Part shown: positions 33,440 to 64,000 of the stretch, piece after piece
Numbering within the stretch: position 1 is the stretch's first letter
Layout: every line of letters begins with the position of its first letter
Source: an uncultured Gammaproteobacteria bacterium
Lineage (GTDB): Bacteria > Patescibacteriota > Microgenomatia > JAMCZE01
Assembly (NCBI GenBank): GCA_964576435.1
Contig: CAZNUP010000001.1
Coordinates: 378,259 to 442,258 of the forward strand
DNA length: 64,000 nt
Direction: 5' to 3'
Program-made: the position numbers and the translations under genes
Notes under the pieces: generated by a model
Told to the model about the DNA's origin: nothing
The model's input: the letters and a program-made list of their open reading frames with translations, nothing else
The model's database searches: none

Positions 33440-34195
33440 ATGACCAAGCCCAAAATAGTGATTGCCATGCCCACCTATAATGAGGCGGAAAGCATTGGGA
33501 AAATGCTGGATGTGCTAACTAAAGATATTTTTCCAAAAATCAAAGACCATGATGTCCAGGTTTTAGTAATTGATGGGCACTCTCCTGATGGAACCTGGAA
33601 AATAGTTGCCGAAAAAGCCAAAAAGAATAAATCAGTAGTTCTCCTAGATGAAGGTAAAAAAAGCGGCCTAGGTGCTGCTTATACTAATGGTTTTAACTAC
33701 GCCATAAAAACTCTTAAAGCTGATGCAATTATGGAAATGGATTCCGATTTCCAACATGATCCACAAGACATCCCAAGATTCATTGCAGAATTTGATAAAG
33801 GCCATGACTATATCTTGGGATCAAGGTATATCAAAGGTGGTTCAATTCCAAAAGAATGGGGATTAGATCGTAAATTCTTATCAGTTGTTGGTAACCTTGT
33901 TTATCAATTTGGTCTTTTGATGTTTGATATCCATGATTTTACAACTGGTTATCGCCTAGCAAGGGTAAAGGATTATTTAGATTCAATAAACTTTGAAAAA
34001 GTTTTTTCTAAATCTTTTGCCTATAAAACTCGTCTGCTTTATGAAATGAAAAAGAGAGGTGCCAAGATTGAAGAAATCCCAATTAAGTTTGGAGTAAGAG
34101 GTGCGGGAGATAGTAAGATGACTACAAATACATTAACTGAAAGCGTCAAAATTATCGCAGTGATTTGGGCAGATCGTCTAGGATTGTCAAAATGA
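33440..34195 (+). CDS. GT2 polyprenyl-phosphate sugar synthase (Dpm1/GtrB/ArnC-like), soluble form
   Basis: 'IVIAMPTYNEAESI', 'VIDGHSPDGT', 'MDSDFQHDP' DXD-type GT-A motifs of dolichol-phosphate mannose synthase-like enzymes. Confidence 0.85.
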   Translation: MTKPKIVIAMPTYNEAESIGKMLDVLTKDIFPKIKDHDVQVLVIDGHSPDGTWKIVAEKAKKNKSVVLLDEGKKSGLGAAYTNGFNYAIKTLKADAIMEMDSDFQHDPQDIPRFIAEFDKGHDYILGSRYIKGGSIPKEWGLDRKFLSVVGNLVYQFGLLMFDIHDFTTGYRLARVKDYLDSINFEKVFSKSFAYKTRLLYEMKKRGAKIEEIPIKFGVRGAGDSKMTTNTLTESVKIIAVIWADRLGLSK

Positions 34196-34938
34196 AAAAA
34201 CTTGTCATAGTTGCCCCTACTTTCAATGAAGAAGAAAACATCGAGGACTTCATCACAAACACCCTAGCTCAGCAAATAAGACTAAACAATGTGGATTTGG
34301 AACTTCTTATTTCAGATAGTATTTCCAATGACAAAACAAAAGAGATTGTTCAAAAAATGCAAAAAAAAGAAAAGAAACTCCACTTTTTAGAGTCTAAAAC
34401 TCCAGGTCCTGGAAAGTTGGGTGCCGGTCTAATTGAGGGTCTAGATTATGCGACTTCAAATCTTAAAGCAGATTACCTGATCACTATGGAGGCAGATTTA
34501 ACAAATGACGTCAATAAAATTCCTGAGATTGCAGATCTACTAAGTAAGTTTGAAGTGGTAATCTGTAGCAGATATATAAATGGTGGCCGTGTTGTTAATT
34601 GGTCGCTGTGGAGGAAGTTTTTAAGCTACTTTGCAAACTTAATTTTGCGAACTCTTTCCGGAGGCTCTAAATTGCATGAATTTACCAACCTTTACAGGGG
34701 CTTCCATAAAGATGTCTGGCAAAAGCTCCGTCCGGAGTTAATAGCTCAAACTGATTGGCTTTTTGTTCCGGCATTCGTTTTTGCAGTAATTCAGGGCAAG
34801 TTCAAAACGGTTGAGATTCCCTATACGTTTTATGATCGTTTTGGTGGCAGATCTAAGATGCAAACTCCCTCATATACAAAAAACTTGCTTATATTTGCGC
34901 TAAAATATAGACTAAACCGTCATGGAGCATTTTCTTAA
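34192..34938 (+). CDS. GT2 polyprenyl-phosphate sugar synthase paralogue (Dpm1-like)
   Basis: Start chosen at the ATG that overlaps the upstream TGA (ATGA). 'LVIVAPTFNEEENI', 'MEADLTND'. Confidence 0.8.
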   Translation: MKKLVIVAPTFNEEENIEDFITNTLAQQIRLNNVDLELLISDSISNDKTKEIVQKMQKKEKKLHFLESKTPGPGKLGAGLIEGLDYATSNLKADYLITMEADLTNDVNKIPEIADLLSKFEVVICSRYINGGRVVNWSLWRKFLSYFANLILRTLSGGSKLHEFTNLYRGFHKDVWQKLRPELIAQTDWLFVPAFVFAVIQGKFKTVEIPYTFYDRFGGRSKMQTPSYTKNLLIFALKYRLNRHGAFS

Positions 34939-35422
34939 ATTCTTAGTAGTAGGTTCAATTGGATTTCTAATTAACACCACGGTGTTAATTTTTGGCGTTC
35001 GCAAGTTCAATCTTAAGCCATCAATTGCTGGTCCAATTGGTGCCGAACTTGCGATTATCTCCAACTTTATTTTGAATAATTTTTGGACCTTTTCAGATAA
35101 AACAATCACTTCCTGGTCAGTTCTCCCCCAAAAATTTATTGCCTTTAATATTCTTTCCCTAGGGTCTGCTGTAATTCAATTCATTTTCTTAAAAGCTGGA
35201 GAAATCATCTTTGGACTAGAAAAGTATAAAAAACCTGTTTTAACAGTTATTCCAGTCAAAAAGATACCAGTAGTTAACAGTATTGTCGAAGCGCTTTTAA
35301 AGATCAAAATATTCAATAAACTCTCTCAAAAAATGACTGTATATTTTGTTTTCTATATTGCTGGTGTTGGTGTTGGTTTAATTGTAAATTTCTTTATCTA
35401 TAGCCTAATAATTTGGAGATGA
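34922..35422 (+). CDS. GtrA-family small membrane protein (polyprenyl-P-sugar translocation component)
   Basis: 'KFLVVGSIGFLINTTVLIF...ISNFILNNFWTF' GtrA (PF04138) pattern, 4 TM. Confidence 0.75.
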   Translation: MEHFLKFLVVGSIGFLINTTVLIFGVRKFNLKPSIAGPIGAELAIISNFILNNFWTFSDKTITSWSVLPQKFIAFNILSLGSAVIQFIFLKAGEIIFGLEKYKKPVLTVIPVKKIPVVNSIVEALLKIKIFNKLSQKMTVYFVFYIAGVGVGLIVNFFIYSLIIWR

Positions 35423-36894
35423 AAAAAAAGTTAGTCCTTTTAACATTCGGGCTAATTATTGTTCTGGGATTCCTACTTCGCTTCTATAGATTAGAAGCTT
35501 ACTTAACTTTTCTCGGTGATCAAGGACGAGATCTTTTAGTGGTTAAAAGAATGATTGTCGATCATATACCAACTCTTTTAGGTCCAACGGCTTCAGTCGG
35601 TGGATTTTATGTAGGCCCAGCTTATTACTATTTTCTGGTGCCATTTATGTTTGTCTTTAGGCTAGATCCCTTTGGTTCTGCCTTTATGTCAGCAACAATT
35701 GGACTGGCAACATTGATTTTGACCTATTTCTTTGTAAAGGAGCTAACAAGTAGTAAGAAGATTTCACTATTGGCAGCATTTTTAACAACAATTGCTCCCA
35801 AGTTTGTAGGAATCTCGCGTTTTTCTTGGAACCCAAATCCAATGCCTCTATTTACAATTCTGACTCTCTATTTAACCCTCCTCGGCGCTAAAAGAAATAA
35901 ACTAATTTATACGCTCTTTGCTGGAGTCTCATTTGGAATCCTTCTCCAACTTCACTATATGTCTTTAGTTCTTGTTCCCGTACTGGCTGTAGCTGCTGTG
36001 CTACTATTTTGGAGAAAAAGATTGCTTCTCAATCTGGGAATGGCTGTGCTTGGTGTTTTAATTGGCCTAAGCCCATTCCTTCTTTACGAACTTCGCCATA
36101 GTTTTCCAAACTTGATTAGTGCTACAGAGTTTTTAACTAGGGGAACTACAGTAGCTCCAAAATCCTATAATCCTTTTGAGCTCTACAACAACACGGGAAG
36201 AATTCTTTTTGATACTCTCATTGGCTTCATGGGTGTAGTGCCTAATTTTTTCTTTTTGACTTCGCTTTTAGGATCAGCAATTTTAATTTTCAAAAAGAAG
36301 CTATCAAGATCCACAGTCATAATAGTTTTAAGTTATTTCCTCTTAGGAATCATAACGATGGGTCTTTATAGAGGACAAATTCTTGACCATTATTATGGCG
36401 TTCTTTTCCCACTAGCCATTTTAATGCTTGCTCTCACCGGCATGTTGCTTATTTCTTATGGCAAAGTAGGTAAAGTTATTGCCATAATCTATTTCGGAGC
36501 TTTCACAGTCTTTTCCTTAAAAAATGAATTTTATGTATTTCCAGCAAACAACTTGGTTCAACAAACTAGAGCAGTTTCTGAAATAGCCCTTGGTCTAACA
36601 AATCATGAACCATTCAATTTTGCATTGATTACTCCAGGAAATAGTGACCACGCCTATAGGTACTTCATGGAGACAAAAGGCATAAAACCTGAAGTTATTC
36701 AAAACGAAATTATTGACCCAAAAAGATTTTCAGTCACCAAGCAACTTATTGTCGTCTGTGAAGATCCAAAGTGTGAGCCTCTTGGTAATCCTCTTTGGGA
36801 AGTTGCTGGTTTTGGTAGAGCTGAGATCAAGGAAACGAGGAACGGTCCAGCTGGGATTAAAGTGTTTAAACTGGTACACTACGAGGGTGAATAA
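35413..36894 (+). CDS. GT-C fold polytopic membrane glycosyltransferase (ArnT/PMT-like)
   Basis: About 12 TM. N-terminal 'LRFYRLEAYLTFLGDQGRDLLVVKRM' loop with acidic residues, as in polyprenyl-P-sugar-dependent GT-C enzymes. Confidence 0.65.
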   Translation: MEMKKKLVLLTFGLIIVLGFLLRFYRLEAYLTFLGDQGRDLLVVKRMIVDHIPTLLGPTASVGGFYVGPAYYYFLVPFMFVFRLDPFGSAFMSATIGLATLILTYFFVKELTSSKKISLLAAFLTTIAPKFVGISRFSWNPNPMPLFTILTLYLTLLGAKRNKLIYTLFAGVSFGILLQLHYMSLVLVPVLAVAAVLLFWRKRLLLNLGMAVLGVLIGLSPFLLYELRHSFPNLISATEFLTRGTTVAPKSYNPFELYNNTGRILFDTLIGFMGVVPNFFFLTSLLGSAILIFKKKLSRSTVIIVLSYFLLGIITMGLYRGQILDHYYGVLFPLAILMLALTGMLLISYGKVGKVIAIIYFGAFTVFSLKNEFYVFPANNLVQQTRAVSEIALGLTNHEPFNFALITPGNSDHAYRYFMETKGIKPEVIQNEIIDPKRFSVTKQLIVVCEDPKCEPLGNPLWEVAGFGRAEIKETRNGPAGIKVFKLVHYEGE

Positions 36895-37663
36895 TATCTT
36901 TCTATCAGTTGTAATACCTTCTTATAATGAAACCGCGAACTTAAAGCGTGGTGTTCTGGAAGAAGTTTATAACTACCTAAAAGACCAAAAATATACTTGG
37001 GAAGTAATTGTCTCTGATGATGGTTCCCCTGAAGAAGAAAGTAGAAAGCTAGCTAAAGAGTTTTGCGATGGTCATAAGGGATTTAAATTTGTCCAAAATG
37101 AACATGCAGGTAAACCATTTGCTGTTTGGTCAGGAATTCAAAAATCTCAAGGTGAAATAGTCCTTTTCACTGATATGGATCAATCAACCCCAATTTCTCA
37201 AGTTGAGAAGCTTCTTCCAAAATTTGATGCAGGTTATGATGTTGTAATTGGTAGTCGTGGCCTAAAAAGAAATAACGCTTCAGTTTTAAGAAAATTAGCG
37301 TCAGGAACTTTCTCCACCTTTAGAAGAGTAATGCTCTTGAGAAGTATTAGTGACACTCAAGCTGGTTTTAAATCTTTTAAAGCACCAGTGATTAAAGAAA
37401 TATTTCCACTTTTAGAAATAATTAAAAATCACGGATCAAAAAAAGTTGTTGGCTGGACACCAACGTCTTTTGATGTTGAGCTTCTTGTTGCAGCCAAAAG
37501 ACGTGGCTATAAAATTGCTGAAGTCCAAATTGATTGGGAAGATAGAGATGTTTCAACAGGCAAAGCAAGAGGAAATAAGAAGTTTGCCAAAGAGTCCGCT
37601 GATATGATGAAAGAAATCTTCCGCGTAAAGCTAAACGACATTCGCGGTGCTTACAAAAAATGA
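36887..37663 (+). CDS. GT2 polyprenyl-phosphate sugar synthase (Dpm1-like); GTG start proposed
   Basis: The GTG at 36887 gives 'MNNIFLSVVIPSYNETANL'; the ORF-track start at 36713 would overlap the upstream gene by 180 nt. 'SDDGSPEE', 'TDMDQSTP'. Confidence 0.75.
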   Translation: MNNIFLSVVIPSYNETANLKRGVLEEVYNYLKDQKYTWEVIVSDDGSPEEESRKLAKEFCDGHKGFKFVQNEHAGKPFAVWSGIQKSQGEIVLFTDMDQSTPISQVEKLLPKFDAGYDVVIGSRGLKRNNASVLRKLASGTFSTFRRVMLLRSISDTQAGFKSFKAPVIKEIFPLLEIIKNHGSKKVVGWTPTSFDVELLVAAKRRGYKIAEVQIDWEDRDVSTGKARGNKKFAKESADMMKEIFRVKLNDIRGAYKK

Positions 37664-38655
37664 TAGCAGTCTTATATTTACTTGTTCTAATTGCTCTAGG
37701 AGTTTACTCCTATTCTCAAATTGATTTAAATCTTACTCTTTTTCAAAACCCAGTCTTTCTAAATTTCCAAAACTCCATGATTCAACTTGGTTATTTCCAT
37801 CGTCCGGAGTCTGGATTAATTTTTGTTGTCTTAACATTACTCTTGTCACTTTTCTATTTTCTATTAATTCGCTCACCAAAAGACTGGAAATTAGTCGTTG
37901 GTGGACTGATTGTCCTTGGGCTTATTTGTTATCCAGCATTTTCGCATGACATTTTTAACTACATATTTGACGCGAGAATTTTTGCTTATCATCATCAAAA
38001 TCCATACACGCACACTGCCTTAATGTTTAAAGGTGATGACTGGACCAGGTTTATGAATTGGACGCATAGAGTTTATCCCTATGGTCCATCATTTTTAGCA
38101 ATAACCATAGGTTTTTATTTCTTAGGTCTTGGAAAGTTTATCCTAACCCTTCTTTCTTTTAAGATAATGTCTCTTTTGGCTTTTGGTGGTAGCTCATACA
38201 TTATTTACAAGTTAGCTGGAAAAAGAGGATTAATGTTTTTTGCGGCTAACCCTCTAATTATTTACGAGGTAATAATTTCTGACCATTTGGATATATTGAT
38301 GTTGTTCTTTGCTCTCCTTGGTTGGTACCTTCTTATAAAGCCTCAAAAAAAAGTTTTGTCTTATCTCTCCCTCCTTGTGTCAGTGGGAATTAAATTTGTA
38401 ACAGTTCTTTTAGTGCCCGCATTTATCTTGAAGAATTTGAAGTTGGCCGTCATTCTAGCCTTTGTTGGTGCGGGTTTGCAGGTTTTGTCTCGTGAGGTCT
38501 TGCCACATTATCTAATTGTTCCAATTGGTTTTGCTGCTTTAATGCCTGAGAATAAAAAACTAATTTACGGAACAGCTATTGCCTCAATTCTTATTCTTTT
38601 CATCCGTTACTACCCATTTATTTCAACAGGTAAATGGTTACCTTTAAGCTTTTAA
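37660..38655 (+). CDS. DUF2029/GT87-like (PimE-like) GT-C membrane glycosyltransferase
   Basis: 'HDIFNYIFDARIFAYHHQNPYTH...RVYPYGP' conserved DUF2029 loop motif. About 9 TM. Confidence 0.65.
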   Translation: MIAVLYLLVLIALGVYSYSQIDLNLTLFQNPVFLNFQNSMIQLGYFHRPESGLIFVVLTLLLSLFYFLLIRSPKDWKLVVGGLIVLGLICYPAFSHDIFNYIFDARIFAYHHQNPYTHTALMFKGDDWTRFMNWTHRVYPYGPSFLAITIGFYFLGLGKFILTLLSFKIMSLLAFGGSSYIIYKLAGKRGLMFFAANPLIIYEVIISDHLDILMLFFALLGWYLLIKPQKKVLSYLSLLVSVGIKFVTVLLVPAFILKNLKLAVILAFVGAGLQVLSREVLPHYLIVPIGFAALMPENKKLIYGTAIASILILFIRYYPFISTGKWLPLSF

Positions 38656-40331
38656 TTCTTGGAGATTAAACCCTGCTCTAGAAGTTTCTTCACCATCTCT
38701 GGGTATACATCTTTTCTGAAGTTAAAATTATCATCTAAGTTAAAGTCACCCCTTTTAGATTCGTTAAAATGATAGCCTTTAAGTCTTGTGTAGTTGTTAT
38801 CAAGGAAATTAACGAAGAAATTATTAAACTCACTGGAGAGCCCGAATGCACTATAGTCCCTCCTAAAAACAATCACTTTTGCCGAATTATTTTTATAGTC
38901 AGAAAGTATTTGATTTTTAATCAAAGGAATACCTGCAAACTGCGGCAAGATCCAATGGTATTTTGAAGGTGCCTTACATTTCAAATAAAACATTTCTTCA
39001 AATTCAAATGGTCCCGCCCAACAATACTCATTTGGTGAAACGAGTCCGTTAATAATTGGAGCGACAATCGGTCTGTCATAAACAAGCGGTGCGGTCCCCA
39101 TGTATCTGTTGTATGTGATCCTCCAGTTTTCTGAAAAAATAAATATAGCAGCAAACACCCAATAAATAGCAAGAATAATTCCAAGAATTGTGAATGCTGA
39201 TTTAGCAAGGTGGTCAGAGATTCCATTTATTTCTTTTCTCAAAAGATCAAAAACCAAAGCAAAATTCAAAATGCTCAAAATAAAGTAAACAGATGTTTGA
39301 TAGTCAGTAACTTTTATTTCTGCTGGGTTCCCGCGAGCATTTGCAAAAATTAAAAGTCCGAGAACAAGGAAGAATAGCAGTATCTTTCTTCTATAAAGAA
39401 GCCACGCAAATAAGACCATGTTTGCAAGGGCAAGTGCATGAGTCATTGGGAATCTTGGGTTAAATGAAATGATTCCGCTAACTGCAAGTTGGAAATTGTT
39501 GAAGAAGTTATTAAAGATAACTATCGCATATCTAATTGGGTTTATTGTTTCCACCCCAGCAGCTCTTGGGTAATTATAAATGTAATATTTCTGGTTATAT
39601 CCAATAGCTTCGTACATAAAATCATTGATGGATCCAGAAACTAAAAGATACAATCCAAAAGCTAAGTAAGGGACCACTAACACCAAACCAAATATGATAA
39701 GAGGCTTGATTTCAGATTTAAGTTTCGCTTTATTAAATGGCAAGAAAATTTGTCTAAGATAATAAATTGCCAATATTGCGTACACAACAATTCCTGCATA
39801 TGTGTATGTCATGGAATTTAAAATAGAAAGGAAGGTAAACCCAGAGATAACTACAATATCCGAAAGGCTAACCTTTTCCTGAAAATACATTCTGTAAAAT
39901 AGAAGTAGATAAGCAGGAACTAGAAAGAATCCACTCATCGGATCAGCAAGGAACATGTGTCCCCAAAAATAAATTGCAGCAAATGAAGTTAGAAATGCAA
40001 AAAGCCAAAAAGCCAAAATATCGAGTTTTGGCATTTTCTTCCTAAAAAGTAAAAATATTCCAACGAAATAAGCCAAAAATACTAAGCTTGTGAGAAGTCT
40101 GAATTTTACAAACGACCCTCCACCTATAAGTACTAAAGGTGCTGACAAAAAGTAAGCTAGTGGTCCATGATGTGAGAAAAATCCAGAATATGGCAATATT
40201 CCTTCGAGAATTAACTTCCCCCCAAGAATGTTATCAAATTCATCTGGATAGCTTGCAAATAGGCAGTTGGCAAGAAGAACTAAAAATAGTGCTCCAAAAA
40301 GTGCGATTGTTATTAACTTAATGTTTTTCAT
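38652..40331 (-). CDS. Polytopic membrane protein, GT-C-like, inverted within the + strand operon
   Basis: About 13 TM plus a C-terminal soluble domain. Stop codon shares the TTAA at 38652-38655 with the convergent gene. Its start is 13 bp from the divergent start at 40345. Confidence 0.55.
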   Translation of the reverse strand: MKNIKLITIALFGALFLVLLANCLFASYPDEFDNILGGKLILEGILPYSGFFSHHGPLAYFLSAPLVLIGGGSFVKFRLLTSLVFLAYFVGIFLLFRKKMPKLDILAFWLFAFLTSFAAIYFWGHMFLADPMSGFFLVPAYLLLFYRMYFQEKVSLSDIVVISGFTFLSILNSMTYTYAGIVVYAILAIYYLRQIFLPFNKAKLKSEIKPLIIFGLVLVVPYLAFGLYLLVSGSINDFMYEAIGYNQKYYIYNYPRAAGVETINPIRYAIVIFNNFFNNFQLAVSGIISFNPRFPMTHALALANMVLFAWLLYRRKILLFFLVLGLLIFANARGNPAEIKVTDYQTSVYFILSILNFALVFDLLRKEINGISDHLAKSAFTILGIILAIYWVFAAIFIFSENWRITYNRYMGTAPLVYDRPIVAPIINGLVSPNEYCWAGPFEFEEMFYLKCKAPSKYHWILPQFAGIPLIKNQILSDYKNNSAKVIVFRRDYSAFGLSSEFNNFFVNFLDNNYTRLKGYHFNESKRGDFNLDDNFNFRKDVYPEMVKKLLEQGLISKN

Positions 40332-40344: not shown

Positions 40345-41934
40345 ATGGCACGTTTAGCTCTAATTGCAATTTTCGTTTTAGCTCTTCTCCTTAGAGTTTA
40401 CAGTCTTTCAACCATTCCAAATGGTTTTCACATTGATGAAGCAGCTAATGGATATATTGGTAGATATATTTTATTAAATGGCCACGACTTAGCAAATAGG
40501 CCCTGGCCGATTGACTATTCAGATAAATTTGAAGATTATCCACCAGTAATTCCCATGTATCTATCAGCACTCCCAACTTTTGTCATGGGAGTTAATGAAT
40601 TTGCAGTGAGGCTACCATCGGCAATTTTTGGTGCAATCTTAGTAGTTCTTGTTTACCAACTAGTAGTCGTTTTAACTAAAAGTAAAAGAGCTTCTCTTGT
40701 GGCTGCACTTTTAACCGCAGTCTTGCCCTGGAGTATTGTCCTTTCCAGAACAACTTCTGAAACCAGTTTCGGATTGGTTTTCTTTGCCCTTGGTTTAATT
40801 CTGGTTTTCAAAAACAAGATCGGTTGGTCAATTCCAATATTTTTACTTTCCTATTTAGTCTATCCAACCTTTAGAACTGTTATTCCAATGGTGTTTTTCG
40901 GACTTCTTTTTGTAACTGCAAGACCTTCAAGAAAAATGATTGTCACAGGTCTAGTTATAACTCTGTTGGCAACAATTCTTGCCTCTCAAACTGTTTGGGG
41001 TCAAGCAAGATTTAAAAAGATTTCCCTGTTAACAGATCCAAATACAGTAACAAGACTTGAGAAGAAGTCACAGGCATTAGGCTTTGAAGAAGGACCAAAT
41101 AATGTTTTTATAGCTCGTTTCTATCACAATAAAATAACCACAACCGCTGAAGAGTTTACTAAAAACTATCTTGACTATCTCTCTCCAAGATTCTTGTTTT
41201 TCCAAGGAGGTTTGCCTGATCGTGTTGTAGTTCCTGAGCGGGGAGTGTTATTAATATTTACTGCCTTTGTAATCATATTGGGACTTTTAATAAGTTCAAA
41301 AAACAAAAAACTAATCTACTTTTTCACATATCTATTACTGATCTCAATTATTCCAGCCGCTTTAACAATAGACGAAATCCCAAGCATAAATAGAGCTGCC
41401 CCCATGATTATTCCAATTGTCGTCTTAGTGGGTCTTGCTGCTGATGAGATTTTGGCATTAAAGTTTAAAAAACCAATTTGGATTGCTCTATCACTTGGAG
41501 CATCAGCTTTTTTGGCAATCGAACTCTTATTTTTCCTTCATTACTATTTTATTCATGCAGCCTCCTATAGAAGCTTTTCAAGAAATGATGGTGCCAAGGA
41601 AATGGCAGAATATCTAATCTCAGAGAAAAATTCAGGGAAGAAGATTCTAGCTACTGCTTCCGACTGGGAACCCATCTACTATTTATTTTATTCAAATAAT
41701 TTTTCAAAAAATTTAACACCATTTGGTAAAAAACTTTATATTAAGAACGTAGACAACATAACTTTTGTTCCAACCCTTTGCGTTACGGGTTCTGAAAGTA
41801 AAGAAACAATTTCAAAGTTCGATATCATTCTTGAGGGCGGAGGTTGTGATGAAAAGGCTGTAGGGAAAACATTAAAAGTCTTTACAAGGCAGGATGAGAG
41901 TAAGTCCTACAAAGTAATAGAAGTTAATAGATGA
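40345..41934 (+). CDS. GT39-like (PMT/ArnT family) membrane glycosyltransferase, paralogue 1
   Basis: 'RLALIAIFVLALLLRVYSLSTIPNGFHIDEAANGYIGRYIL' is the N-terminal DE-motif loop typical of GT39/GT83. Confidence 0.75.
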   Translation: MARLALIAIFVLALLLRVYSLSTIPNGFHIDEAANGYIGRYILLNGHDLANRPWPIDYSDKFEDYPPVIPMYLSALPTFVMGVNEFAVRLPSAIFGAILVVLVYQLVVVLTKSKRASLVAALLTAVLPWSIVLSRTTSETSFGLVFFALGLILVFKNKIGWSIPIFLLSYLVYPTFRTVIPMVFFGLLFVTARPSRKMIVTGLVITLLATILASQTVWGQARFKKISLLTDPNTVTRLEKKSQALGFEEGPNNVFIARFYHNKITTTAEEFTKNYLDYLSPRFLFFQGGLPDRVVVPERGVLLIFTAFVIILGLLISSKNKKLIYFFTYLLLISIIPAALTIDEIPSINRAAPMIIPIVVLVGLAADEILALKFKKPIWIALSLGASAFLAIELLFFLHYYFIHAASYRSFSRNDGAKEMAEYLISEKNSGKKILATASDWEPIYYLFYSNNFSKNLTPFGKKLYIKNVDNITFVPTLCVTGSESKETISKFDIILEGGGCDEKAVGKTLKVFTRQDESKSYKVIEVNR

Positions 41935-57024: not shown

Positions 57025-57708
57025 ATGAAGCTTTCAGTGATCATACCCGTTTTCAATGAGAAGAAGACTATCTCCAAGGTTATAAAAACAATTAAGAAAA
57101 CCACCTTCTTTGGATGGAAAAAAGAAATAATTGTTGTTGATGATGGTTCAACAGACGGGACAGTGGAAAGTTTGAGTCACTTTAAAGGCATTTATTCCCT
57201 AAAACACAAGAAAAATCTTGGCAAAGGAGCAGCCATAAAAAGTGGTCTTAGAAAAGCAAACGGTGACTACATAATTATTCAAGATGCTGATTTGGAGTAC
57301 AACCCATCAGAGATAGAAATACTCATTGCTGCGGCCAAACACAATCCAAAAGCTGTAATTTATGGCTCAAGGTTTAGAGGTAAACATGAAGACACTATTT
57401 TTGGCCACAAATTTGGAAATATGGCTTTAACCAAATTAACAAACCTCCTTTATGGCTCTCAGTTGTCCGATATGCAGACTTGCTATAAACTTATTCCAAG
57501 AGCGTTTCTAAGGAAAATAAAAATTGACAGTATGCGCTTTAATTTTGAGCCTGAAGTAACCGCTAAGCTTCTTTTGGCAAAGAAGGATATCCTAGAGGTA
57601 CCGATTTCTTATAAGAAACGAAGTTTTAGCGAAGGAAAAAAACTTTTTTGGTTCAAAGACGGAACTAGTGCAGTATGGACACTATTAAAATATCGATTCT
57701 TCTCTTAA
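57025..57708 (+). CDS. GT2 polyprenyl-phosphate sugar synthase (Dpm1-like)
   Basis: 'LSVIIPVFNEKKTI', 'VVDDGSTDGT', 'QDADLEYNP'. Confidence 0.85.
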   Translation: MKLSVIIPVFNEKKTISKVIKTIKKTTFFGWKKEIIVVDDGSTDGTVESLSHFKGIYSLKHKKNLGKGAAIKSGLRKANGDYIIIQDADLEYNPSEIEILIAAAKHNPKAVIYGSRFRGKHEDTIFGHKFGNMALTKLTNLLYGSQLSDMQTCYKLIPRAFLRKIKIDSMRFNFEPEVTAKLLLAKKDILEVPISYKKRSFSEGKKLFWFKDGTSAVWTLLKYRFFS

Positions 57709-59255
57709 TACTATTTTTAGCATTCTTGGTGCGTGGTTTTAACTTCGGTTCAAATCCACCATCCCTGAATTCTGACGAAGCTGCAATTGGCTACAACGCC
57801 TATTCCATTTTGAAAACCGGTAAAGACGAATATGGGCAATCTTTCCCATTAGCTTTCAGATCATTTGACGATTACAAGCCACCACTCTATATTTACTTAA
57901 CTGTTCCCTCAGTGGCCGTTTTTGGTCCTACAAGTTTCGGAATAAGATTGCCGGCCCTTATTTTGGGTCTCCTTTCAATTGTTTCAGTCTTTCTGTTGGT
58001 TAAAGAAGTATCGAAGAAATTCTATCTTGGAGCACTTGCCGCATTTCTTTTGGCAATAAGTCCCTGGCACATTCTTTTTTCAAAAGTGGCCTTTGAAGCA
58101 GGCGGATTAGTCTTTTTGTTCTCTTTAGGTTCCTATTTCTTTCTTAAAGCAAAAACTAGGCCCTGGTTTTATACAGGAGCTCTCATTTGTTTTGCTCTAG
58201 CTCCATTTTTGTATCAAGCAGGTAAAGTAATAGCTCCATTATTGGTTATTATTCTGATCTTAACTAACTGCTCCAAAAAACTATTAGTCTCAATTCTTTT
58301 TGCCATAGTTCTCTTACCCGGTTTTTTAACACTAGTATCAAGTGAAGGCTCACTTCGCTATAGAGGTTTAAGTGTTCTTAGTGACCCAGGTATTGAAAGC
58401 CAGACAACAAGCGACCGAAAAATTGACTGGCTTAGAGGGGACAACAAGTCCGCGCTTCTCTTCCACTCCGAGATAAAAACTGCCGGTCTTAAAGTTGCAA
58501 ACAACTACTTCTCATATTTTAGACCTGACTTTCTTTTTCTAGCAAATGGAGACAACAGATTACCATACGTCCCAGACACAGGATTTCTCTATCTAATTGA
58601 GCTTCCACTCCTTTTTATTGGTGTCTACTTTTTGTGGCGTAAAACTTCAAAGAACCTGGCCATTTTTATTACATTGTGGCTAGTGATAGCTCCAATTCCA
58701 GCAAGCATTGTAATTGGTTCACCAAATTCAATTAGAGCATCGTTAATGATTGTTCCTTTGTACACAATGATTGCCTATGGTATTTACTATTTAACAAAAG
58801 AATTTTCAAAAGTATCTAAGTTTGTCTTTCCAATTCTTTTTGCAATTTCTCTAGCATTTTATCTCCATGAGCTTTTGATTCATGCACCAGTTGTTAACAG
58901 TAAAACTTGGTATTACTCACTTGAAGACACAGTAAAGTACACGGAAAGTATAAAAGGGGGTTATGACAAAATTTATGTTTCTAACTCCATTGACGAACCA
59001 TATATTTTCTTTTTGCTTTACTCAGCAAAAGACCCAGCTAAGTATTTAAAACAAGGGGGCACTGTCTCTGGTGGATTTAAAGAAGATAGAAATAAATTTG
59101 ATAAATACAAATTCGTTTTCCTAGACTTTGAAAAACTAAAAAAACAACCAAATACTCTGATAGTTGGAACTCCCAAAGATTTTCCAAATGATGCTGTGCC
59201 ATCGAAGACCCTTAATTATTTAAATGGTGAACCTTCCATTTTCATTTTCCAATGA
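57675..59255 (+). CDS. GT39-like membrane glycosyltransferase, paralogue 2
   Basis: 'LVRGFNFGSNPPSLNSDEAAIGYNAYSILKTGKDEYGQSFP'. Confidence 0.75.
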   Translation: MDTIKISILLLILFLAFLVRGFNFGSNPPSLNSDEAAIGYNAYSILKTGKDEYGQSFPLAFRSFDDYKPPLYIYLTVPSVAVFGPTSFGIRLPALILGLLSIVSVFLLVKEVSKKFYLGALAAFLLAISPWHILFSKVAFEAGGLVFLFSLGSYFFLKAKTRPWFYTGALICFALAPFLYQAGKVIAPLLVIILILTNCSKKLLVSILFAIVLLPGFLTLVSSEGSLRYRGLSVLSDPGIESQTTSDRKIDWLRGDNKSALLFHSEIKTAGLKVANNYFSYFRPDFLFLANGDNRLPYVPDTGFLYLIELPLLFIGVYFLWRKTSKNLAIFITLWLVIAPIPASIVIGSPNSIRASLMIVPLYTMIAYGIYYLTKEFSKVSKFVFPILFAISLAFYLHELLIHAPVVNSKTWYYSLEDTVKYTESIKGGYDKIYVSNSIDEPYIFFLLYSAKDPAKYLKQGGTVSGGFKEDRNKFDKYKFVFLDFEKLKKQPNTLIVGTPKDFPNDAVPSKTLNYLNGEPSIFIFQ

Positions 59256-60745
59256 AAACAAATTTAGTTTTAATCGCAATACTACTGCTTTCCAGCCTGC
59301 TGCGCTTTTACAACATCACTAAAGTTCCTCCCAATTTAAATTGGGACGAAGTGGCAATTGGCTATAACGCCTTTTCCATAAATGAAACGGGTAAAGATGA
59401 ATGGGGGAATAAGTACCCTGTTTTATTTAAATCTTTTGGTGACTATAAACCACCAGTCTATATTTATTCTGTAGCACTAGCAGAGAAACTATTCGGTCAG
59501 ACAGATTTTTCAGTTCGCTTGCCATCAGCTCTAGCTGGTATTTTTACTACTTGTGTAGTCTTCCTCTTGGTAAGAGAGCTTTTTAATTCTTCAAAAAAGA
59601 AAACAAAACTCGCACTGATGGCCGCTTTTTTATTTGCAGTTTCGCCATGGGCACTACAATTCAACAGGGCTGGATTTGAAGCAAGTCTCGCGTTATTTCT
59701 CGTAACAACTGGTGTTTATTTTTTTCTATTGGCATTGAAAGAAAAAATTATTTGGCTCCTACCATCATTAATCTTTTTTTCTTTGGCAACAGCCACTTAT
59801 CACAATGCTAGAATTTTTGTCCCACTTTTTGTAGGAGTTCTATTTTTGCTAAATTTCCGTTATCTATGGAAAAAGATATTGCCCATCGCTCTAATTTTAA
59901 TTTTTGTTTTTATTCTTAATATCCCTTATCTTGGAACCTGGGTTTCAAATGAAGGCAGAGCAAGATTTGTTTCAGAAAGTGTAATTAATCAGCCAGGTAA
60001 CTTAGTGGAAAACCTGCAAACTAACTATCTGGGCAATTTTAGTTCCGATTATTTGTTTTTCAGAGGCGATCAAAACGGTCGTCACTCCGTAAAAAAGCTC
60101 GGTCAAAATTATCTTTGGGAACTACCATTTTTCCTCTTTGGTGCTTATATCCTAATTAAAAAAAGAAACAAAGCATCGTGGCTAATAATTTCCTGGCTTC
60201 TTTTAGCTGCAATCCCTCCAACTATGACAAAAGTTTCTCCTCACGCTCTTCGTGGACTGTTGATGGTAATTCCTATTTTGACAATTACTGCTCTTGGGCT
60301 AGTAACAATTAACAGAAAAAAGCTGTTAACAGTTATTGTTCTGCCAATATTTCTCTTTTTCTTTGTCCTATATCTACACACTTACTTTGAACATTATCCA
60401 AAAGCCTACGCACTTGATTGGCAGGATGGTAGTAAGCAAGCAGTGGAGGATTTAACAAAACTAAGTCCAAGTTATGATCAGATTTTTGTACATCCATCAC
60501 TTGATCCAACTTTCATTCTTTTTTACAACTCTTACCCTCCAGAAAAATTATATGAAAAGCATCATGTGACCAAGAATTTAGGAAAATTCTATTATCATGA
60601 CTTAAATACTCAGCCAATAAAGAAAAATCCCACTAAGAAAAGTCTCATTTTAGCTCCCGCCACAACCACTCCAGGTAACTCAAAACAACTTGAAGAAATT
60701 GATATGACTAATGGTGAAGCCATTTTTAAAATATATGAATTTTAA
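59252..60745 (+). CDS. GT39-like membrane glycosyltransferase, paralogue 3 (tandem duplicate)
   Basis: 'LLRFYNITKVPPNLNWDEVAIGYNAFSINETGKDEWGNKYP'. ATGA-type overlap with the upstream gene. Confidence 0.75.
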   Translation: MKTNLVLIAILLLSSLLRFYNITKVPPNLNWDEVAIGYNAFSINETGKDEWGNKYPVLFKSFGDYKPPVYIYSVALAEKLFGQTDFSVRLPSALAGIFTTCVVFLLVRELFNSSKKKTKLALMAAFLFAVSPWALQFNRAGFEASLALFLVTTGVYFFLLALKEKIIWLLPSLIFFSLATATYHNARIFVPLFVGVLFLLNFRYLWKKILPIALILIFVFILNIPYLGTWVSNEGRARFVSESVINQPGNLVENLQTNYLGNFSSDYLFFRGDQNGRHSVKKLGQNYLWELPFFLFGAYILIKKRNKASWLIISWLLLAAIPPTMTKVSPHALRGLLMVIPILTITALGLVTINRKKLLTVIVLPIFLFFFVLYLHTYFEHYPKAYALDWQDGSKQAVEDLTKLSPSYDQIFVHPSLDPTFILFYNSYPPEKLYEKHHVTKNLGKFYYHDLNTQPIKKNPTKKSLILAPATTTPGNSKQLEEIDMTNGEAIFKIYEF

Positions 60746-61157
60746 TCCCTATACCTGTATAAATAGCCGAATCAAACTTGATCTTCCAAATCAGTTTTGG
60801 GAAGCAAGAAGCTTTGACGATCCAGGAAGTCTTTTGGCAAAAGTCCTTCACAACAAGGCTTATCTAATTTTCGATAACTACACGAGGTGTTACACCAGTT
60901 TCTTTTCCCCAGAAACTATTGCCATGGTTTTTACAATTGTAAGTGTTCCTCTATTTTTCGCAGGTATTTACTTCCTTATCTCGAAGAAGGTGTATTGGCC
61001 ATTAATTGTTCTTCTTTTATCTCCCATGCCGATATTATTTGAGTTTCCACAAAATACTTTCATTAGGCAAATTCCACTTTTGTTATCTCAATCTGCGATA
61101 ATGATATACGGTCTATGGCATTTATTAAAAACACTAAAGTCATCCTGGCGGGCATAG
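60735..61157 (+). CDS. Small 3-TM membrane protein, hypothetical (possible remnant or accessory subunit)
   Basis: ORF bridging two GT39 paralogues, overlapping both. No homology recognised. Confidence 0.35.
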   Translation: MNFNPYTCINSRIKLDLPNQFWEARSFDDPGSLLAKVLHNKAYLIFDNYTRCYTSFFSPETIAMVFTIVSVPLFFAGIYFLISKKVYWPLIVLLLSPMPILFEFPQNTFIRQIPLLLSQSAIMIYGLWHLLKTLKSSWRA

Positions 61158-62734
61158 TTTTGGTAGCTAGCCTTTTAAGGCTTTTTAATCTTGGAACTAA
61201 TCCACCTGCACTATACTGGGACGAAAGCAGTTTAGGTTTTAATGCGTTTGCAATTTCTGAAAGCCTGCATGATGAACATGGGGAATTTTTACCGTTTTCC
61301 AGGTTCATTGCGTATGGTGACTACAAGCCACCTCTCTATATTTATGCGGCCGCACCTTTTGTAAAAATATTTGGATTAAATGAGTTTACAACTCGTTTAC
61401 CGTCAGCCCTTTCAGGTATTGCTTTAACAGTTCTTGGTTATTTCCTGGTTTTAGAAATACTAAGATCTTCCAAATTAAGAAAGAGAGCAGCTCTTTTAAC
61501 AAGTTTCATAATTGCAATTTCCCCTTGGATGCTTCAAATATCAAGGGCAGCCTTTGAAGCAAACCTAGCAACGGCTCTCATGTGTGCTGGGGTCCTATTT
61601 CTGTTAAAGTTTTTTAGAACCTACGAATATAAATTCCTTTTTCTTGGTGGTTTGTTTGCGACTCTTCCTGTATACACGTTTAATTCCCACAGAGTTAGTA
61701 TCCCGCTTTTAGTTGGTTTAATTTTTATCTTAAATCTCAAACGGCACCTTCCTTGGAAAAAATTGATCATTTTGGTGGCTTTCATGGGAGTTTTAGTTTT
61801 ACCAGCAATTCCTCATTTAGTTTCCCCAGAAGGTAGGTTGCGTTTCCAAGAAGTTGCTTGGGTAAATGATCTTGCACCCATTATTCAGTCCAATGATCGG
61901 ATTGCAACAGATAGTGGAAGTTTAGCGGGAAAAATTCTGCACAACCGCCGGATCGTCTACGGTTTAGAATTTCTAAACCATTTTTCGGATCATTTAAATC
62001 CGGACTATCTATTTGTGTCAGGGGACGAGAATCCAAAGTTATCAATACAAAAAATAGGGGAGTTCTATTGGTTTGATTTAGCTCTCATCCTTTTGGGCCT
62101 AGTCTTTCTTATAAAATTTCAAAAAAAAGCAGGCCTTCTTCTTGTTGGCTGGATCATTATTGGGATAATTCCAGCTGCCCTGGCAAGAGAAACTCCCCAT
62201 GCACTAAGAACTGCTGCAAGTCTTCCAGCTCCACAAATAATAATTGGCGTAGGACTTGCTTATGGAATGAGTCTTATAAGTGGAAAATATCGGAAATTAG
62301 CAGCTGCTGTTCTCAGTATTATTGTCGTGCTTTTCTTAGCAAACTATCTGACCCTCTACTACAAATGGTACCCGCTTCGTTATGCTTCAGCTTGGCAATA
62401 CGGTTATAAACAGATGGTTTTGGAAGTTACCAAAGATCTCCCAAGATATAAAGGCGTGGTAGTGACTAAGGAATTGGGTCGCCCCTATATTTATTTCCTT
62501 TTCTACAATCAAGTTACCCCAGAAGAATATTTAAAAAATTCCGATGTCACTCATGATTCGTTTGGGTTTTATGACGTTAACCGTTTTGGGAAAATCTATT
62601 TCACCGAATCAGATAAGCCTGGTAAGGGATGGTTGTATGTGAGAGTTCCAGGAAAAAGTCCTCAAGGATCAAAAGTGATAAAGACAATTACAGATTTAGA
62701 GGGCAAAAAAGTATTTGAAATAAGTACAAGATGA
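61115..62734 (+). CDS. GT39-like membrane glycosyltransferase, paralogue 4
   Basis: 'LLRLFNLGTNPPALYWDESSLGFNAFAISESLHDEHGEFLP'. Confidence 0.75.
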   Translation: MAFIKNTKVILAGIVLVASLLRLFNLGTNPPALYWDESSLGFNAFAISESLHDEHGEFLPFSRFIAYGDYKPPLYIYAAAPFVKIFGLNEFTTRLPSALSGIALTVLGYFLVLEILRSSKLRKRAALLTSFIIAISPWMLQISRAAFEANLATALMCAGVLFLLKFFRTYEYKFLFLGGLFATLPVYTFNSHRVSIPLLVGLIFILNLKRHLPWKKLIILVAFMGVLVLPAIPHLVSPEGRLRFQEVAWVNDLAPIIQSNDRIATDSGSLAGKILHNRRIVYGLEFLNHFSDHLNPDYLFVSGDENPKLSIQKIGEFYWFDLALILLGLVFLIKFQKKAGLLLVGWIIIGIIPAALARETPHALRTAASLPAPQIIIGVGLAYGMSLISGKYRKLAAAVLSIIVVLFLANYLTLYYKWYPLRYASAWQYGYKQMVLEVTKDLPRYKGVVVTKELGRPYIYFLFYNQVTPEEYLKNSDVTHDSFGFYDVNRFGKIYFTESDKPGKGWLYVRVPGKSPQGSKVIKTITDLEGKKVFEISTR

Positions 62735-64000
62735 AAAAGCTATTAGTTCTTGGTTTTATCTTTTATGTTTTTCTCTCTTGGGTCGTGTTCTTTAGGTTTG
62801 AGTGGGCTCTTTCAATCTATGCCAAAAATTATCCCGATGTCGCCCTTTTATTGCCACAAATTAGAGATTTTCTTCTTAAACTTTATCTAAACACCGTCCC
62901 CACTTTGCTTTTTGGGGCTTTGGTTGTTGGCTTGTTTGCTGCCTACTTGTATAGCCTAAGAGACAAATTGACTGCTAAATCAGTCATCATCTACGCAATT
63001 CTTTTTCAAATTATTGTCCTTTTTTCCTATCCAATTCTTTCAACTGATATTTATGGCTACATAGTTTCAGATAGGCTAGCCATTGTTCACAATTCTAACG
63101 TTTGGACAACGAAACCGAATGCGTTCCCGGAAGACAAGTTTTACAATTTAGCTGATTACACAGATCAAGTTAGAATTTATGGACCGGTAAATCAGGGTAT
63201 TTATGCTATCCCCACAGTTTTATCTGGAGACGATGTCTTAACGAATGTTTTAGTTCACAAACTTGTGGTTATGGTTTTTGTCATAGCTAGTTTGTTTGTA
63301 GTGAAAAAAATAAATTCTGATCCGAAAATTTTGGCACTAATTTTTTGGAACCCTCTTCTAGTTTTAGAAACTGCAGGTTCAGGTCACAACGACATAATAA
63401 TGCTGTTTTTCCTACTCCTTTGTTATTTGTTCTTTACTAATAAGCGCTATCTCTTAGCGGGTCTTATGGCCGCTCTTTCAGTGCAAGTTAAGGCAACACC
63501 ACTGCTCCTATTGCCTTTTATTTTTATATTTTTTATCAAAAATACCAGTTGGAAAGCTATGCTTCAATTCTTCGTGTCATTCGTGGCGGTTTATCTAATA
63601 ACTTTCTTGCCAATGCAGACATCCTTTGGTGCGCTTTTAAGTCGTCAAGCACAAGCAACCGGTGCCTATTGGCAATCATTGCCACTATTAATTGACAGGT
63701 ACATTCAACCATTAGCATTCTTATTAAAAATAGCCTTGCCCTTAGTCTTATTAGTCCAGGCGACCAGGACATTTCTTGGAGAAAATCCATGGAGAATGTT
63801 TGTCCAAACGCTATTTATCTATCTTCTTTTCTTCTTGCCAACTCTTTGGAACTGGTATCCACTTTGGGTATTAGCTCTTGCCCCGCTGCTATTTTCTCTT
63901 AAGTCCCGCACAGTTTGGGCCATAGTTGGAATGACCTTTGGCGCCCTTTTTGCATACGTTGTCTATTGGACAGGTCAAAGAATTGATTACTTTCAAAGCC
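62731..64000 (+). CDS. DUF2029/GT87-like GT-C membrane protein (3'-partial, runs off window); paralogue of 37660
   Basis: ATGA overlap. 'TDIYGYIVSDRLAIVHNSNVWTTKPNAFPED...RIYGP' parallels the 37660-gene motif. No stop codon before the window end, so it is absent from the ORF track. Confidence 0.6.
   Translation, partial: MKKLLVLGFIFYVFLSWVVFFRFEWALSIYAKNYPDVALLLPQIRDFLLKLYLNTVPTLLFGALVVGLFAAYLYSLRDKLTAKSVIIYAILFQIIVLFSYPILSTDIYGYIVSDRLAIVHNSNVWTTKPNAFPEDKFYNLADYTDQVRIYGPVNQGIYAIPTVLSGDDVLTNVLVHKLVVMVFVIASLFVVKKINSDPKILALIFWNPLLVLETAGSGHNDIIMLFFLLLCYLFFTNKRYLLAGLMAALSVQVKATPLLLLPFIFIFFIKNTSWKAMLQFFVSFVAVYLITFLPMQTSFGALLSRQAQATGAYWQSLPLLIDRYIQPLAFLLKIALPLVLLVQATRTFLGENPWRMFVQTLFIYLLFFLPTLWNWYPLWVLALAPLLFSLKSRTVWAIVGMTFGALFAYVVYWTGQRIDYFQS

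Follow-up and report, generated by a model that had tools for sequence, protein, structure and literature searches.

Multi-component transmembrane glycosylation systems such as GtrA/GtrB/GtrX, CsbB/GtcA/YfhO, GtlA/GtlB, Csd/CflA, GacI-J-K-L and ArnC/ArnT combine a synthase of glycosyltransferase family GT2 with a GtrA or Wzx flippase and an outer GT-C glycosyltransferase of the YfhO or PMT_2 type. Described variants include a soluble GT-A enzyme with a separate membrane protein, flippases of the Wzx type, and a single flippase that serves several GT-A/GT-C pairs (PMC8035078). Known genomes carry one to about three such pairs. Here we describe a gene array at positions 33440-64000 of a 64,000-nucleotide stretch of contig CAZNUP010000001.1 (assembly GCA_964576435.1; hereafter the window), which belongs to a locus with at least 16 GT-Cs of eight families and about five synthases. 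Its sub-block d1-d2-gtrA-P has exactly the gene content of the multi-component systems, while the array differs from them in that its synthases all lack transmembrane (TM) helices and three of its GT-C families have no Pfam model. We consider it likely that this conserved and operon-like array acts as an assembly line, built on the multi-component transmembrane glycosylation principle, for a glycan outside the cytoplasm.

To our knowledge, mycobacterial lipomannan and lipoarabinomannan (LM/LAM) is the only bacterial case of many GT-Cs cooperating on one polymer. The mycobacterial and corynebacterial machinery for LM/LAM and arabinogalactan (Ppm1, MptA/B/C, PimE, Emb, Aft) resembles the array in using many GT-Cs and polyprenyl-phosphate sugars for one outside polymer. 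Moreover, the catalytic Ppm1 domain has no TM helices and needs a membrane partner, as the array synthases appear to; two array proteins, M1 and M2, fall in the GT87/MptA-B family; and AftA, AftB, AftD, EmbB and PimE are among the fold matches of the array. In contrast to the clustered array, the mycobacterial genes are scattered, and the lineage is unrelated, with a genome of about 0.7 Mb or little more on the side of the array. No Emb/Aft-type (Arabinose_trans) family was detected in the array, its MptA/MptB matches are far below cut-off, and no genes for a phosphatidylinositol-mannoside anchor were seen with it.

The Pgf system of Streptococcus mutans (PgfS, PgfM1, PgfE, PgfM2) and streptococcal GtrB/PgtC2 use a GtrB-like GT2, YfhO-like GT-Cs and an epimerase on Ser/Thr-rich surface regions (PMC5856776, PMC12041528). 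NCBIfam places the d genes of the array nearest PgfS and the C terminus of Y1 nearest PgfM1/PgfM2, but these matches fall short of the equivalog cut-offs by a factor of 10 to 40, and Pgf has two GT-Cs. The dolichol pathway (Dpm1/Alg5, RFT1-type MOP proteins, ALG3/9/12/6/8/10, STT3/AglB) shares with the array GT4 steps, a MOP flippase, Dpm1-type synthases without TM helices, duplicated outer GT-Cs and a GT-C of oligosaccharyltransferase-like fold. The synthase d1 is closest to archaeal dolichol-phosphate-mannose synthase (DPMS), and ALG3, ALG9, ALG12 and ALG6 are among the array fold matches, yet the array lacks ALG or STT3 sequence membership, the WWDYG motif and a nearby initiator of the Alg7/WecA type; the likeness is one of logic and fold only.

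Patescibacteria, also called the candidate phyla radiation, are assumed to live in attachment to other microbes, and very little work exists on their surfaces. In the searchable literature we found no description of such arrays, only passing remarks on glycosyltransferases: '29 glycosyl transferases' in one Microgenomates genome (PMC7143001), multiple copies of Dol-P-mannosyltransferase in Peregrinibacteria (PMC4736985) and a further count in passing (PMC6031116). A recent perspective on the biology of the phylum does not mention glycosylation (PMC11665869). While the principle is known, what is new here is the scale (at least 16 GT-Cs of eight families in one conserved array, in a genome of about 0.7 Mb or little more), a synthase that appears to be split, three GT-C families not catalogued so far and one conserved gene that corresponds to a GT-C fragment.

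GT-C glycosyltransferases of the array

All 14 large membrane open reading frames (ORFs) of the array are GT-C glycosyltransferases by sequence, profile or fold match, from which we infer their activity. A preliminary description, made from the sequence alone, had counted at least 14 such enzymes, and this number holds: nine of them pass a Pfam gathering score, three are assigned by paralogy or profile comparison and two (U and V) by predicted fold. Coordinates below are those of the window, on the plus strand unless stated, with refined gene starts; the ORFs at 35413 and 47422 correspond to P at 35419..36894 and F2 at 47479..49188. PMT or PMT_2 models were matched by P (PMT_2 1.9e-10, PMT 8e-7), A1 (40345..41934; PMT 1.1e-9), A2 (57675..59255; PMT_2 1.9e-7), A3 (59252..60745; PMT_2 1.8e-15) and A4 (61115..62734; PMT 1.1e-10, PMT_2 1.2e-8). 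YfhO was matched above its gathering score by Y1 (41931..44210, 759 residues; 3.1e-14, 52.7 bits, in the C-terminal part) and Y2 (54945..57020, 691 residues; 1.3e-26, 93.7 bits, profile positions 73-596 of 835), and GT87 by M2 (62731..64000, cut by the window end and 451 residues long in full; 6.9e-7, 29.7 bits against a cut-off of 25). F2 is borderline, with PMT_2 at 1e-5 (26.2 bits, cut-off 26.1) and PTPS_related at 3.5e-4, below cut-off.

An all-against-all BLASTP comparison grouped these proteins into A (A1 to A4), Y (Y1, Y2), F (F1 at 44183..45577, and F2) and M (M1 at 37660..38655, 331 residues, and M2), with four singletons: P, Q (45562..46980), U (38652..40331, minus strand) and V (51573..53123). 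This reproduces exactly the grouping proposed previously of four PMT-like, two YfhO, two 'GQFPVR', two GT87-like and four other proteins. Within the groups, A1 is 27-30% identical to A2-A4, A2 33% to A3, and A4 35% to A3 (2.8e-92); Y1 and Y2 share 31% over 733 residues (6e-91); F1, a PTPS_related/YfhO-related protein, shares 28% with F2 (1e-44); and M1 matches M2 at 2e-10.

Deeper relationships were sought by profile comparison with hhalign, using family alignments made of homologues from 77 related loci and database matches. P and Q matched at 100% (E 3.6e-40, 393 columns), which makes Q a distant sister of P; A and P matched at 99.2% (2.7e-19), Y and F at 99.3% (8e-21), and V matched P, A and F at 90-96%. 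The C terminus of F2 is likewise related to that of Y1, and although F2 itself scored only 19.6 bits against PF10131 (cut-off 26.4), its family orthologues in two related loci (L081 and L083) carry that domain. M1 matched the NCBIfam models for MptA (1.1e-6) and MptB (1.9e-5) below cut-off, and its L083 orthologue carries PF26314 (MptA_B_family), as does a full-length copy of M2 on the identical contigs L001 and L079; M2 reached MptA at 1.3e-14 (54 against a cut-off of 439 bits) and MptB at 27 against 40 bits. Judged by these scores, M1 and M2 are members of the GT87/MptA-B family and not orthologues of MptA or MptB. The U and M families had no sequence link to other GT-C families by hhalign, even with enlarged alignments, and profiles of the U, V and A families gave nothing useful against the sequences of solved structures.

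The U, V and Q families have no Pfam or NCBIfam match, their database homologues are all unnamed (271 for U, 42 for Q), and U and V have no Pfam match even at E<=10. AlphaFold models were built from alignments for V (predicted local distance difference test, pLDDT, 88.4; predicted template modelling score, pTM, 0.89) and, with AF2, for U (pLDDT 90.5, pTM 0.90). In Foldseek searches of solved structures, the best 22 matches of V were all GT-Cs (DPY19, STT3, AglB, PglB, AftA, EmbB), with a fold closest to oligosaccharyltransferases, ArnT and AftA, and the best 21 of U were all GT-Cs as well (AglB at 1.4e-5, ArnT, Pmt4, STT3, DPY19, AftA, AftD, ALG3, PIG-U). Fold matches of these Pfam-less orphans also include AftB, PimE, ALG9, ALG12 and ALG6. 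Searched against 1.84 billion representative proteins, the U profile found 1518 clusters at E<=1e-3, a number that falls to 600 at E<=1e-10 and to 168 at E<=1e-30. In three of 10 distant members scanned (P0262, P0264, P0309), a U-like domain is naturally fused to a GtrA/DPMS_TM domain (1e-21 to 1e-23) on its N-terminal side, which ties U functionally to a GtrA-dependent pathway, and a fourth (P0300) has a PMT_2 match. U is a predicted GT-C on the basis of its modelled fold and these fusions.

An acidic residue following the first TM helix (TM1) is the hallmark catalytic position of GT-C enzymes. Such a residue is near-invariant just past TM1 in every GT-C family of the array: an Asp or Glu lies 30-40 residues from the N terminus in A, P, Q, F, U and V, while the position is D63 in Y and D97/D126 in M, both invariant in M1. 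Examples are D-E in A (D32-E33, invariant in A3), D36/D40 in P, Y-P-D-E-F-D in U, where the motif P-D-E-F-D is preceded by an invariant tyrosine, and D31 in V, Q and F, joined in Q by an invariant D35. The positive-inside character of the N termini would place the acidic loop outside, and a crude Kyte-Doolittle scan gave 7-14 hydrophobic segments per protein. From their context of adjacent Dpm1-like GT2s, GtrA and GtrA-U fusions, the GT-Cs would be expected to use lipid-phosphate-linked sugar donors.

In view of the PMT-like members, extensive protein O-glycosylation had been raised as a possibility. PMT_2 also occurs in bacterial GT-Cs whose targets are teichoic acids and wall polysaccharides (PMC8035078), so the PMT/PMT_2 matches neither imply protein O-mannosylation nor tell a protein product from a surface heteroglycan. 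The Pfam PMT matches are modest (1e-9 to 1e-10 in A1 and A4) and accompanied by PMT_2, and the A-family profile found no PMT or ArnT among solved structures at E<=0.01. Against the NCBIfam bacterial Pmt equivalog, in a scan that covered A1 and P, A1 had no match and P reached 15 bits where the cut-off is 800 (E 0.0065). No MIR domain was matched by Pfam on any ORF; bacterial Pmts also lack MIR, and its absence alone is not decisive. On these comparisons we reject true PMT (GT39) membership for A1-A4 and P. V was likewise considered as a true oligosaccharyltransferase (STT3/AglB/PglB) and rejected, since it has no Pfam STT3 match at E<=10 and no WWDYG; the WWD motif is absent from both its sequence and the family consensus. 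The likeness of V to oligosaccharyltransferases is one of fold only, C-terminal domain included.

The V ORF starts with GTG at 51573 and lacks 20-40 N-terminal residues, comprising TM1, that are present in most homologues. In this region (window 51480-51640), the in-frame sequence before the GTG resembles a TM helix, LTSNLVAAIGTCLVVFFQ, but is devoid of the start codons ATG, GTG and TTG, which points to a non-canonical start or a truncated N terminus of V. Between A3 and A4 lies a small gene, s (60711..61157), for a 148-residue protein with two TM helices and no Pfam match, which overlaps both neighbours and recurs at this place in at least 14 related loci. As a free-standing homologue of the middle part of A-type GT-Cs (residues ~252-373; hhalign 97.9%, 4.5e-13), it may serve as an accessory subunit or be a gene fragment that has been retained.

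In GT-C arrays of other Patescibacteria we observed more genes of 550-650 codons without a Pfam match (L081 9711-13347, L083 2120-4060), and further uncatalogued GT-C families are likely in such arrays.

Synthases, GtrA and flippase

Six Dpm1-like GT2s had been proposed as a minimum in the preliminary description. Four of them stand: d1 (33440..34195, 251 residues; Pfam Glycos_transf_2 3.3e-24), d2 (34192..34938; GT2 2.3e-18), d3 (36887..37663, GTG start; GT2 1e-23) and d4 (57025..57708, 227 residues; GT2 6.5e-36). Their best relatives are DPMS, GtrB and ArnC, the structurally characterised polyprenyl-phosphate glycosyltransferases, matched near full length, and among them the DxD-type motifs DSD (in d1), EAD, DMD and DAD can be read. 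The best solved relative of d1 is the Dol-P-Man synthase of Pyrococcus furiosus (5mlz, 8e-27, residues 5-239). For d3 the best Protein Data Bank (PDB) matches are DPMS (7.5e-13), GtrB sll0501 (1.7e-12) and ArnC (4e-12), with the NCBIfam Dol-P-hexose transferase at 2.2e-17, and for d4 they are ArnC (6.5e-17) and DPMS (1.2e-15), with NCBIfam AglJ at 1.3e-31. The best NCBIfam matches of d2 are PgfS and ArnC, and it is placed as Dpm1-type via its paralogue d1 (33% identity, 1.6e-30), whose stop codon its ATG at 34192 overlaps by 4 nt.

The other two, w1 (50644..51537; GT2 7.7e-24) and its paralogue w2 (53120..53920; GT2 2.1e-10; 33% identity, 2.5e-39), do not fit that description. In the PDB, w1 matches GmaR (1.8e-14) and SunS (1.2e-10) and reaches DPMS only at 1e-5 over residues 3-104. 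GmaR and SunS, which are GT2s that glycosylate proteins or peptides directly, are the best matches of w2 as well, and by sequence w1 and w2 resemble them more than they resemble polyprenyl-phosphate-sugar synthases.

GtrB and ArnC have two C-terminal TM helices and archaeal DPMS has four, whereas d1-d4 are 227-258 residues long and no TM segment was predicted in any GT2 of the array. Next to d1 and d2 lies a gene for a small membrane protein of 166 residues (34922..35422; Pfam GtrA_DPMS_TM 1.6e-15), whose sole PDB sequence match (2.9e-4) falls on residues 254-337 of 5mlz, the TM domain of the DPMS chain that d1 matches as well. Since d1 and the GtrA-like protein match the catalytic and TM domains of one chain, d1/d2 and GtrA look like a split archaeal-type DPMS. 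The membrane anchor of the soluble synthases thus appears to be supplied in trans by GtrA/DPMS_TM. A soluble synthase with a separate membrane subunit is known from human Dpm1/Dpm3 (PMC4973528) and from GacI/GacJ (PMC8035078). The presence of GtrA, proposed earlier, is clear from Pfam, while its role as a flippase is less so: it may equally be the detached membrane domain of the synthase, and may anchor or activate synthases as well as, or instead of, flipping.

A Wzx-like flippase and a GT4 had also been noted, and both are supported by Pfam. The Wzx/MOP-family protein (49167..50651, ~13 TM helices) matches Polysacc_synt_3 at 4.8e-45 (154.5 bits) and, below cut-off, the NCBIfam MOP flippase (3.3e-35, 122 bits, cut-off 273) and O-glycosylation flippase (1e-22). 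The GT4 (53911..54948), a cytoplasmic enzyme of GT-B fold, matches Glycos_transf_1 at 2e-23 and Glyco_transf_4 at 1.2e-8. All parts of the three-component Gtr-type logic (synthase, flippase and GT-C) are present in multiples, as had been suggested.

Architecture of the array

The preliminary description of a tightly overlapped array filling almost half of the window is accurate. There are 25 ORFs, 23 of them on the plus strand, and 19 of the 24 junctions overlap by 4-43 nt once start codons are refined, the widest gap being 46 nt. Both antisense genes, U and a NUDIX hydrolase (46977..47432), have a 4-nt tail-to-tail overlap with the plus-strand array. The start codons of U and A1 are 13 nt apart, so both promoters must sit within coding sequence, and the antisense placement of U beside M1 is kept in a distant genome (L083). 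The NUDIX gene (Pfam NUDIX 2.5e-20; NCBIfam matches generic only) is not conserved in the related loci compared, and its link to the glycosylation system is uncertain.

GC content is roughly even through the window (0.35-0.38 in the locus, 0.35-0.41 upstream), and the T-rich coding strand of the locus is consistent with membrane proteins. A recently acquired island was considered and rejected, given the even GC content and the fact that the block adjoins trmD in the distant genome as well.

Conservation across Microgenomates

Scanning one genome per species with the A-family alignment yielded 480 relatives, from which the best 77 loci were taken. Wherever a lineage is named these are Patescibacteria: Chisholm-, Woese-, Davies-, Curtiss- and Gottesmanbacteria, Microgenomates and unclassified Patescibacteria. 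We take the title 'uncultured Gammaproteobacteria', which some third-party assemblies bear, as a placeholder, since these do not differ in gene content or in best matches. The related loci, about 21 kb each, contain a median of 7 and a maximum of 10 homologues of the window GT-Cs; they were chosen for an A homologue, and the counts measure recurrence rather than unbiased frequency.

The closest loci and three from Chisholmbacteria are collinear with the array in the order F2-wzx-w1-V-w2-GT4-Y2-d4-A2-A3-s-A4-M2-A-d at 30-60% identity, with A2 among the genes that have positional orthologues. The first part of the array is matched by a 950-kb contig (L083), which reads trmD, then d1-d2-gtrA-P-d3-M1, then U in antisense, then Y1-F1, at 38-64% identity. 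Paralogues within the window are 27-35% identical, compared with 30-64% for collinear orthologues, which indicates that the duplications predate these lineages and that each copy has been held in place. This positional retention speaks against redundancy of the paralogues.

Whether the locus was conserved or variable between related bins had been posed as a comparative check, and the collinear orthologues show that it is conserved; for the same reason we reject a hypervariable or antigenic-variation locus. The array is ancient and conserved, and probably an assembly line. The source is a small-genome organism, as had been supposed (its contig measures 709,729 bp, and the relatives are all metagenome-assembled genomes of Microgenomates type), but an extraordinary investment peculiar to this genome it is not, as related loci show the same order and a median of 7 GT-Cs per 21 kb.

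The locus beyond the window and its sugar genes

The identical contigs L001 and L079 show that the array continues for at least 8 kb past the window end, with two further PMT_2 GT-Cs (499 and 523 residues), a fifth synthase-like GT2, a third w-type GT2 and a second GT4. The whole array thus spans at least 39 kb and contains at least 16 GT-Cs, making up about 5% of the source contig. In L079 this extension also holds genes for an HddA-like heptose-7-phosphate kinase (3e-54), GmhA (1.3e-35) and a short-chain dehydrogenase/reductase epimerase (L079 8331-11042, ~4-7 kb past the window end), and another related locus (L012 18394-19962) has an HddA-like kinase and a GmhA-like SIS gene. This gene content suggests a GDP-heptose-type sugar among the building blocks. 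A Woesebacteria locus (L023) contains a GDP-mannose 4,6-dehydratase. Twenty unassigned ORFs sampled from related loci added more GT4, GT2, GT87, a PIG-V-like GT-C, GHMP kinase, SIS and GDP-mannose dehydratase. In the 72 kb examined we saw no genes for teichoic-acid synthesis.

A proposed pathway and its alternatives

By homology, the four soluble Dpm1/GtrB/ArnC-type GT2s, and the fifth past the window, would use nucleotide sugars to load polyprenyl phosphate with single sugar units on the inner side of the membrane, probably together with the adjacent GtrA/DPMS_TM protein as the detached membrane domain of an archaeal-type Dol-P-Man synthase. Flipping of the lipid-linked sugars would then fall to the GtrA-type protein, to the Wzx/MOP protein or to the two together, and the 14 GT-Cs, which represent eight sequence families and number at least 16 when the whole locus is counted, would pass these sugars to acceptors outside. 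A cytoplasmic branch of GT4, w1/w2, Wzx and V would probably supply a lipid-linked primer or oligosaccharide. Since every paralogue keeps its own orthologue and position, each most likely makes a distinct linkage in one ordered product. As the product, a surface heteroglycan with mannose and heptose, either a lipoglycan or a polysaccharide of the wall, seems to us somewhat more likely than pure protein O-glycosylation. This lean toward a lipomannan/LAM-like heteroglycan comes from the likeness of M1/M2 to MptA/B, the position of d1 nearest to a mannose-phosphate-lipid synthase, and the genes for heptose and GDP-mannose-derived sugars that accompany the arrays.

Several observations weigh against such an assembly line. 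All NCBIfam matches of the array proteins are far below equivalog cut-offs, and the array is read from genes, folds and motifs, so that activity, donor sugars and acceptors are matters of interpretation. A single GtrA gene would serve four to five synthases, and these synthases (5) are far fewer than the GT-Cs (16), so several GT-Cs must share donors. The two embedded antisense genes show that the array does not form a single transcript. An initiating phosphoglycosyltransferase was seen neither in the window nor in L079, nor among the sampled ORFs of related loci, which leaves the Wzx/GT4 branch without a known starting point. Finally, directly upstream of the array, at window 23129-32512, is a cluster of secreted or surface proteins, four of which have Pro/Thr-rich linkers and would suit protein glycosylation equally well. 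This cluster comprises four paralogous Asn/Ser/Thr-rich repeat proteins (23129, 24448 and 26704 on the plus strand and 27852 on the minus strand), the third of which ends in a sorting-signal-like tail, a sortase-like gene with a TLYTC motif (27234-27803), an RTX-repeat protein, a lamin-tail-domain protein, a SipW-like peptidase, a camelysin/TasA-like protein and a CAP protein. It is possible that the proteins with Pro/Thr linkers are substrates of the neighbouring locus.

In general protein O-glycosylation, the GT-Cs would place sugars on Ser/Thr of secreted and surface proteins and lengthen them there, for instance on pilins, on fibre or S-layer proteins and on Pro/Thr-rich linkers. This reading overlaps with the assembly line proposed here and differs only in the acceptor; its models would be actinobacterial Pmt, S. 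mutans Pgf and streptococcal GtrB/PgtC2, the last of which acts on Ser/Thr-rich disordered regions. We hold it to be less likely, but a rival to be taken seriously. It draws on the PMT/PMT_2 matches of six genes, the NCBIfam likeness to PgfS and PgfM1/M2, the secreted cluster at 23-32.5 kb with its four linker-bearing proteins and sortase-like gene, and published precedents (PMC5856776, PMC12041528), but PMT_2 equally marks teichoic-acid and wall-polysaccharide GT-Cs, the A-family profile matches no solved PMT, and the bacterial Pmt equivalog is missed by A1 and touched only marginally by P. The known systems, moreover, use one or two GT-Cs and not 16, and the place of the secreted cluster beside the array is documented for this genome only. 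The GT2/GtrA/GT-C content could instead reflect independent two- or three-gene decoration systems that merely cluster, each acting on a different polymer (teichoic-acid-like, wall polysaccharide or glycolipid), as in Bacillus, Listeria and Lactococcus. Such content is like that of CsbB-GtcA-YfhO and Csd/CflA, with one flippase serving several pairs (PMC8035078), and YfhO and PMT_2 are the families used in those decoration systems. We nevertheless find this reading unlikely: there are 16 GT-Cs to about five synthases, up to four GT-C genes follow one another without a GT2 between them, teichoic-acid synthesis genes were not seen within the 72 kb noted above, and the order and each paralogue are strictly kept over deep divergence, which argues for one coupled pathway.

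The conserved block wzx-w1-V-w2-GT4, together with the NCBIfam likeness to haloarchaeal AglJ, Dol-P-hexose transferase and Agl23, would fit an en-bloc, N-glycan-like route, in which GT4 and w1/w2 build an oligosaccharide on undecaprenyl pyrophosphate, Wzx flips it, outer-face GT-Cs extend it with polyprenyl-phosphate sugars and V transfers it to protein or another acceptor, as a bacterial counterpart of the archaeal and eukaryotic pathway. V has neither a Pfam STT3 match nor WWDYG, however, no phosphoglycosyltransferase was found nearby, and Wzx-type proteins can flip monophosphate-linked sugars too (GacK; PMC8035078), and we regard this route as quite unlikely. Going further, the same block plus the GT-C series might be a bacterial two-stage lipid-linked-oligosaccharide pathway of archaeal/eukaryotic type, a conjecture that we think improbable. 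In it, a core made in the cytoplasm would be flipped by the MOP protein, lengthened outside by the duplicated GT-Cs with sugars from the Dpm1-type synthases, and handed over en bloc by V as an unrecognised oligosaccharyltransferase family that does without WWDYG. Nor do we give credence to the membrane ORFs being transporters or other non-glycosyltransferase proteins, an outcome that would have undone the preliminary description and that, judged by sequence and predicted structure, we reject as having a negligible chance. Five of the 14 have no Pfam match above cut-off, but all five tie to GT-C by paralogy, profile comparison or fold, and in the fold searches with U and V transporters appeared only at E>0.02 and probability <0.2.

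Surroundings of the array

The first 33 kb of the window contain housekeeping genes, including those for FtsX, a PcsB-like protein, SecDF, CCA enzyme, RecJ, a class II aminoacyl-tRNA synthetase, D-Ala-D-Ala carboxypeptidase and DinB. They are followed by the secreted-protein cluster and then by trmD, which is divergent to the array. Scans of the window for tRNAs and Rfam families found nothing. At window 3566-5602 is a gene for a 678-residue fusion of a 'phage holin 4_2' domain with four TM helices and a type I phosphodiesterase/nucleotide pyrophosphatase domain, which by its domains looks like a membrane-anchored extracytoplasmic phosphodiesterase.

Implications for Microgenomates

Three GT-C families without a Pfam or NCBIfam model (U, V and Q) are flagged by this analysis. 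A duplicated series of outer-face GT-Cs in a prokaryote is relevant to the origin of the eukaryotic series in the lumen of the endoplasmic reticulum (ER) (PMC4973528). Were the improbable two-stage pathway true, it would give Microgenomates a prokaryotic analogue of that ER-lumen GT-C series of which no second example is known, plus the three uncatalogued families. For the organisms themselves, a locus that occupies about 5% of the contig and is conserved gene for gene implies that selection maintains a complex coat of surface glycan or glycoprotein as a core trait of this lineage. It is plausible that such a coat helps to determine how the cells attach to hosts, resist phages or stabilise their envelope.

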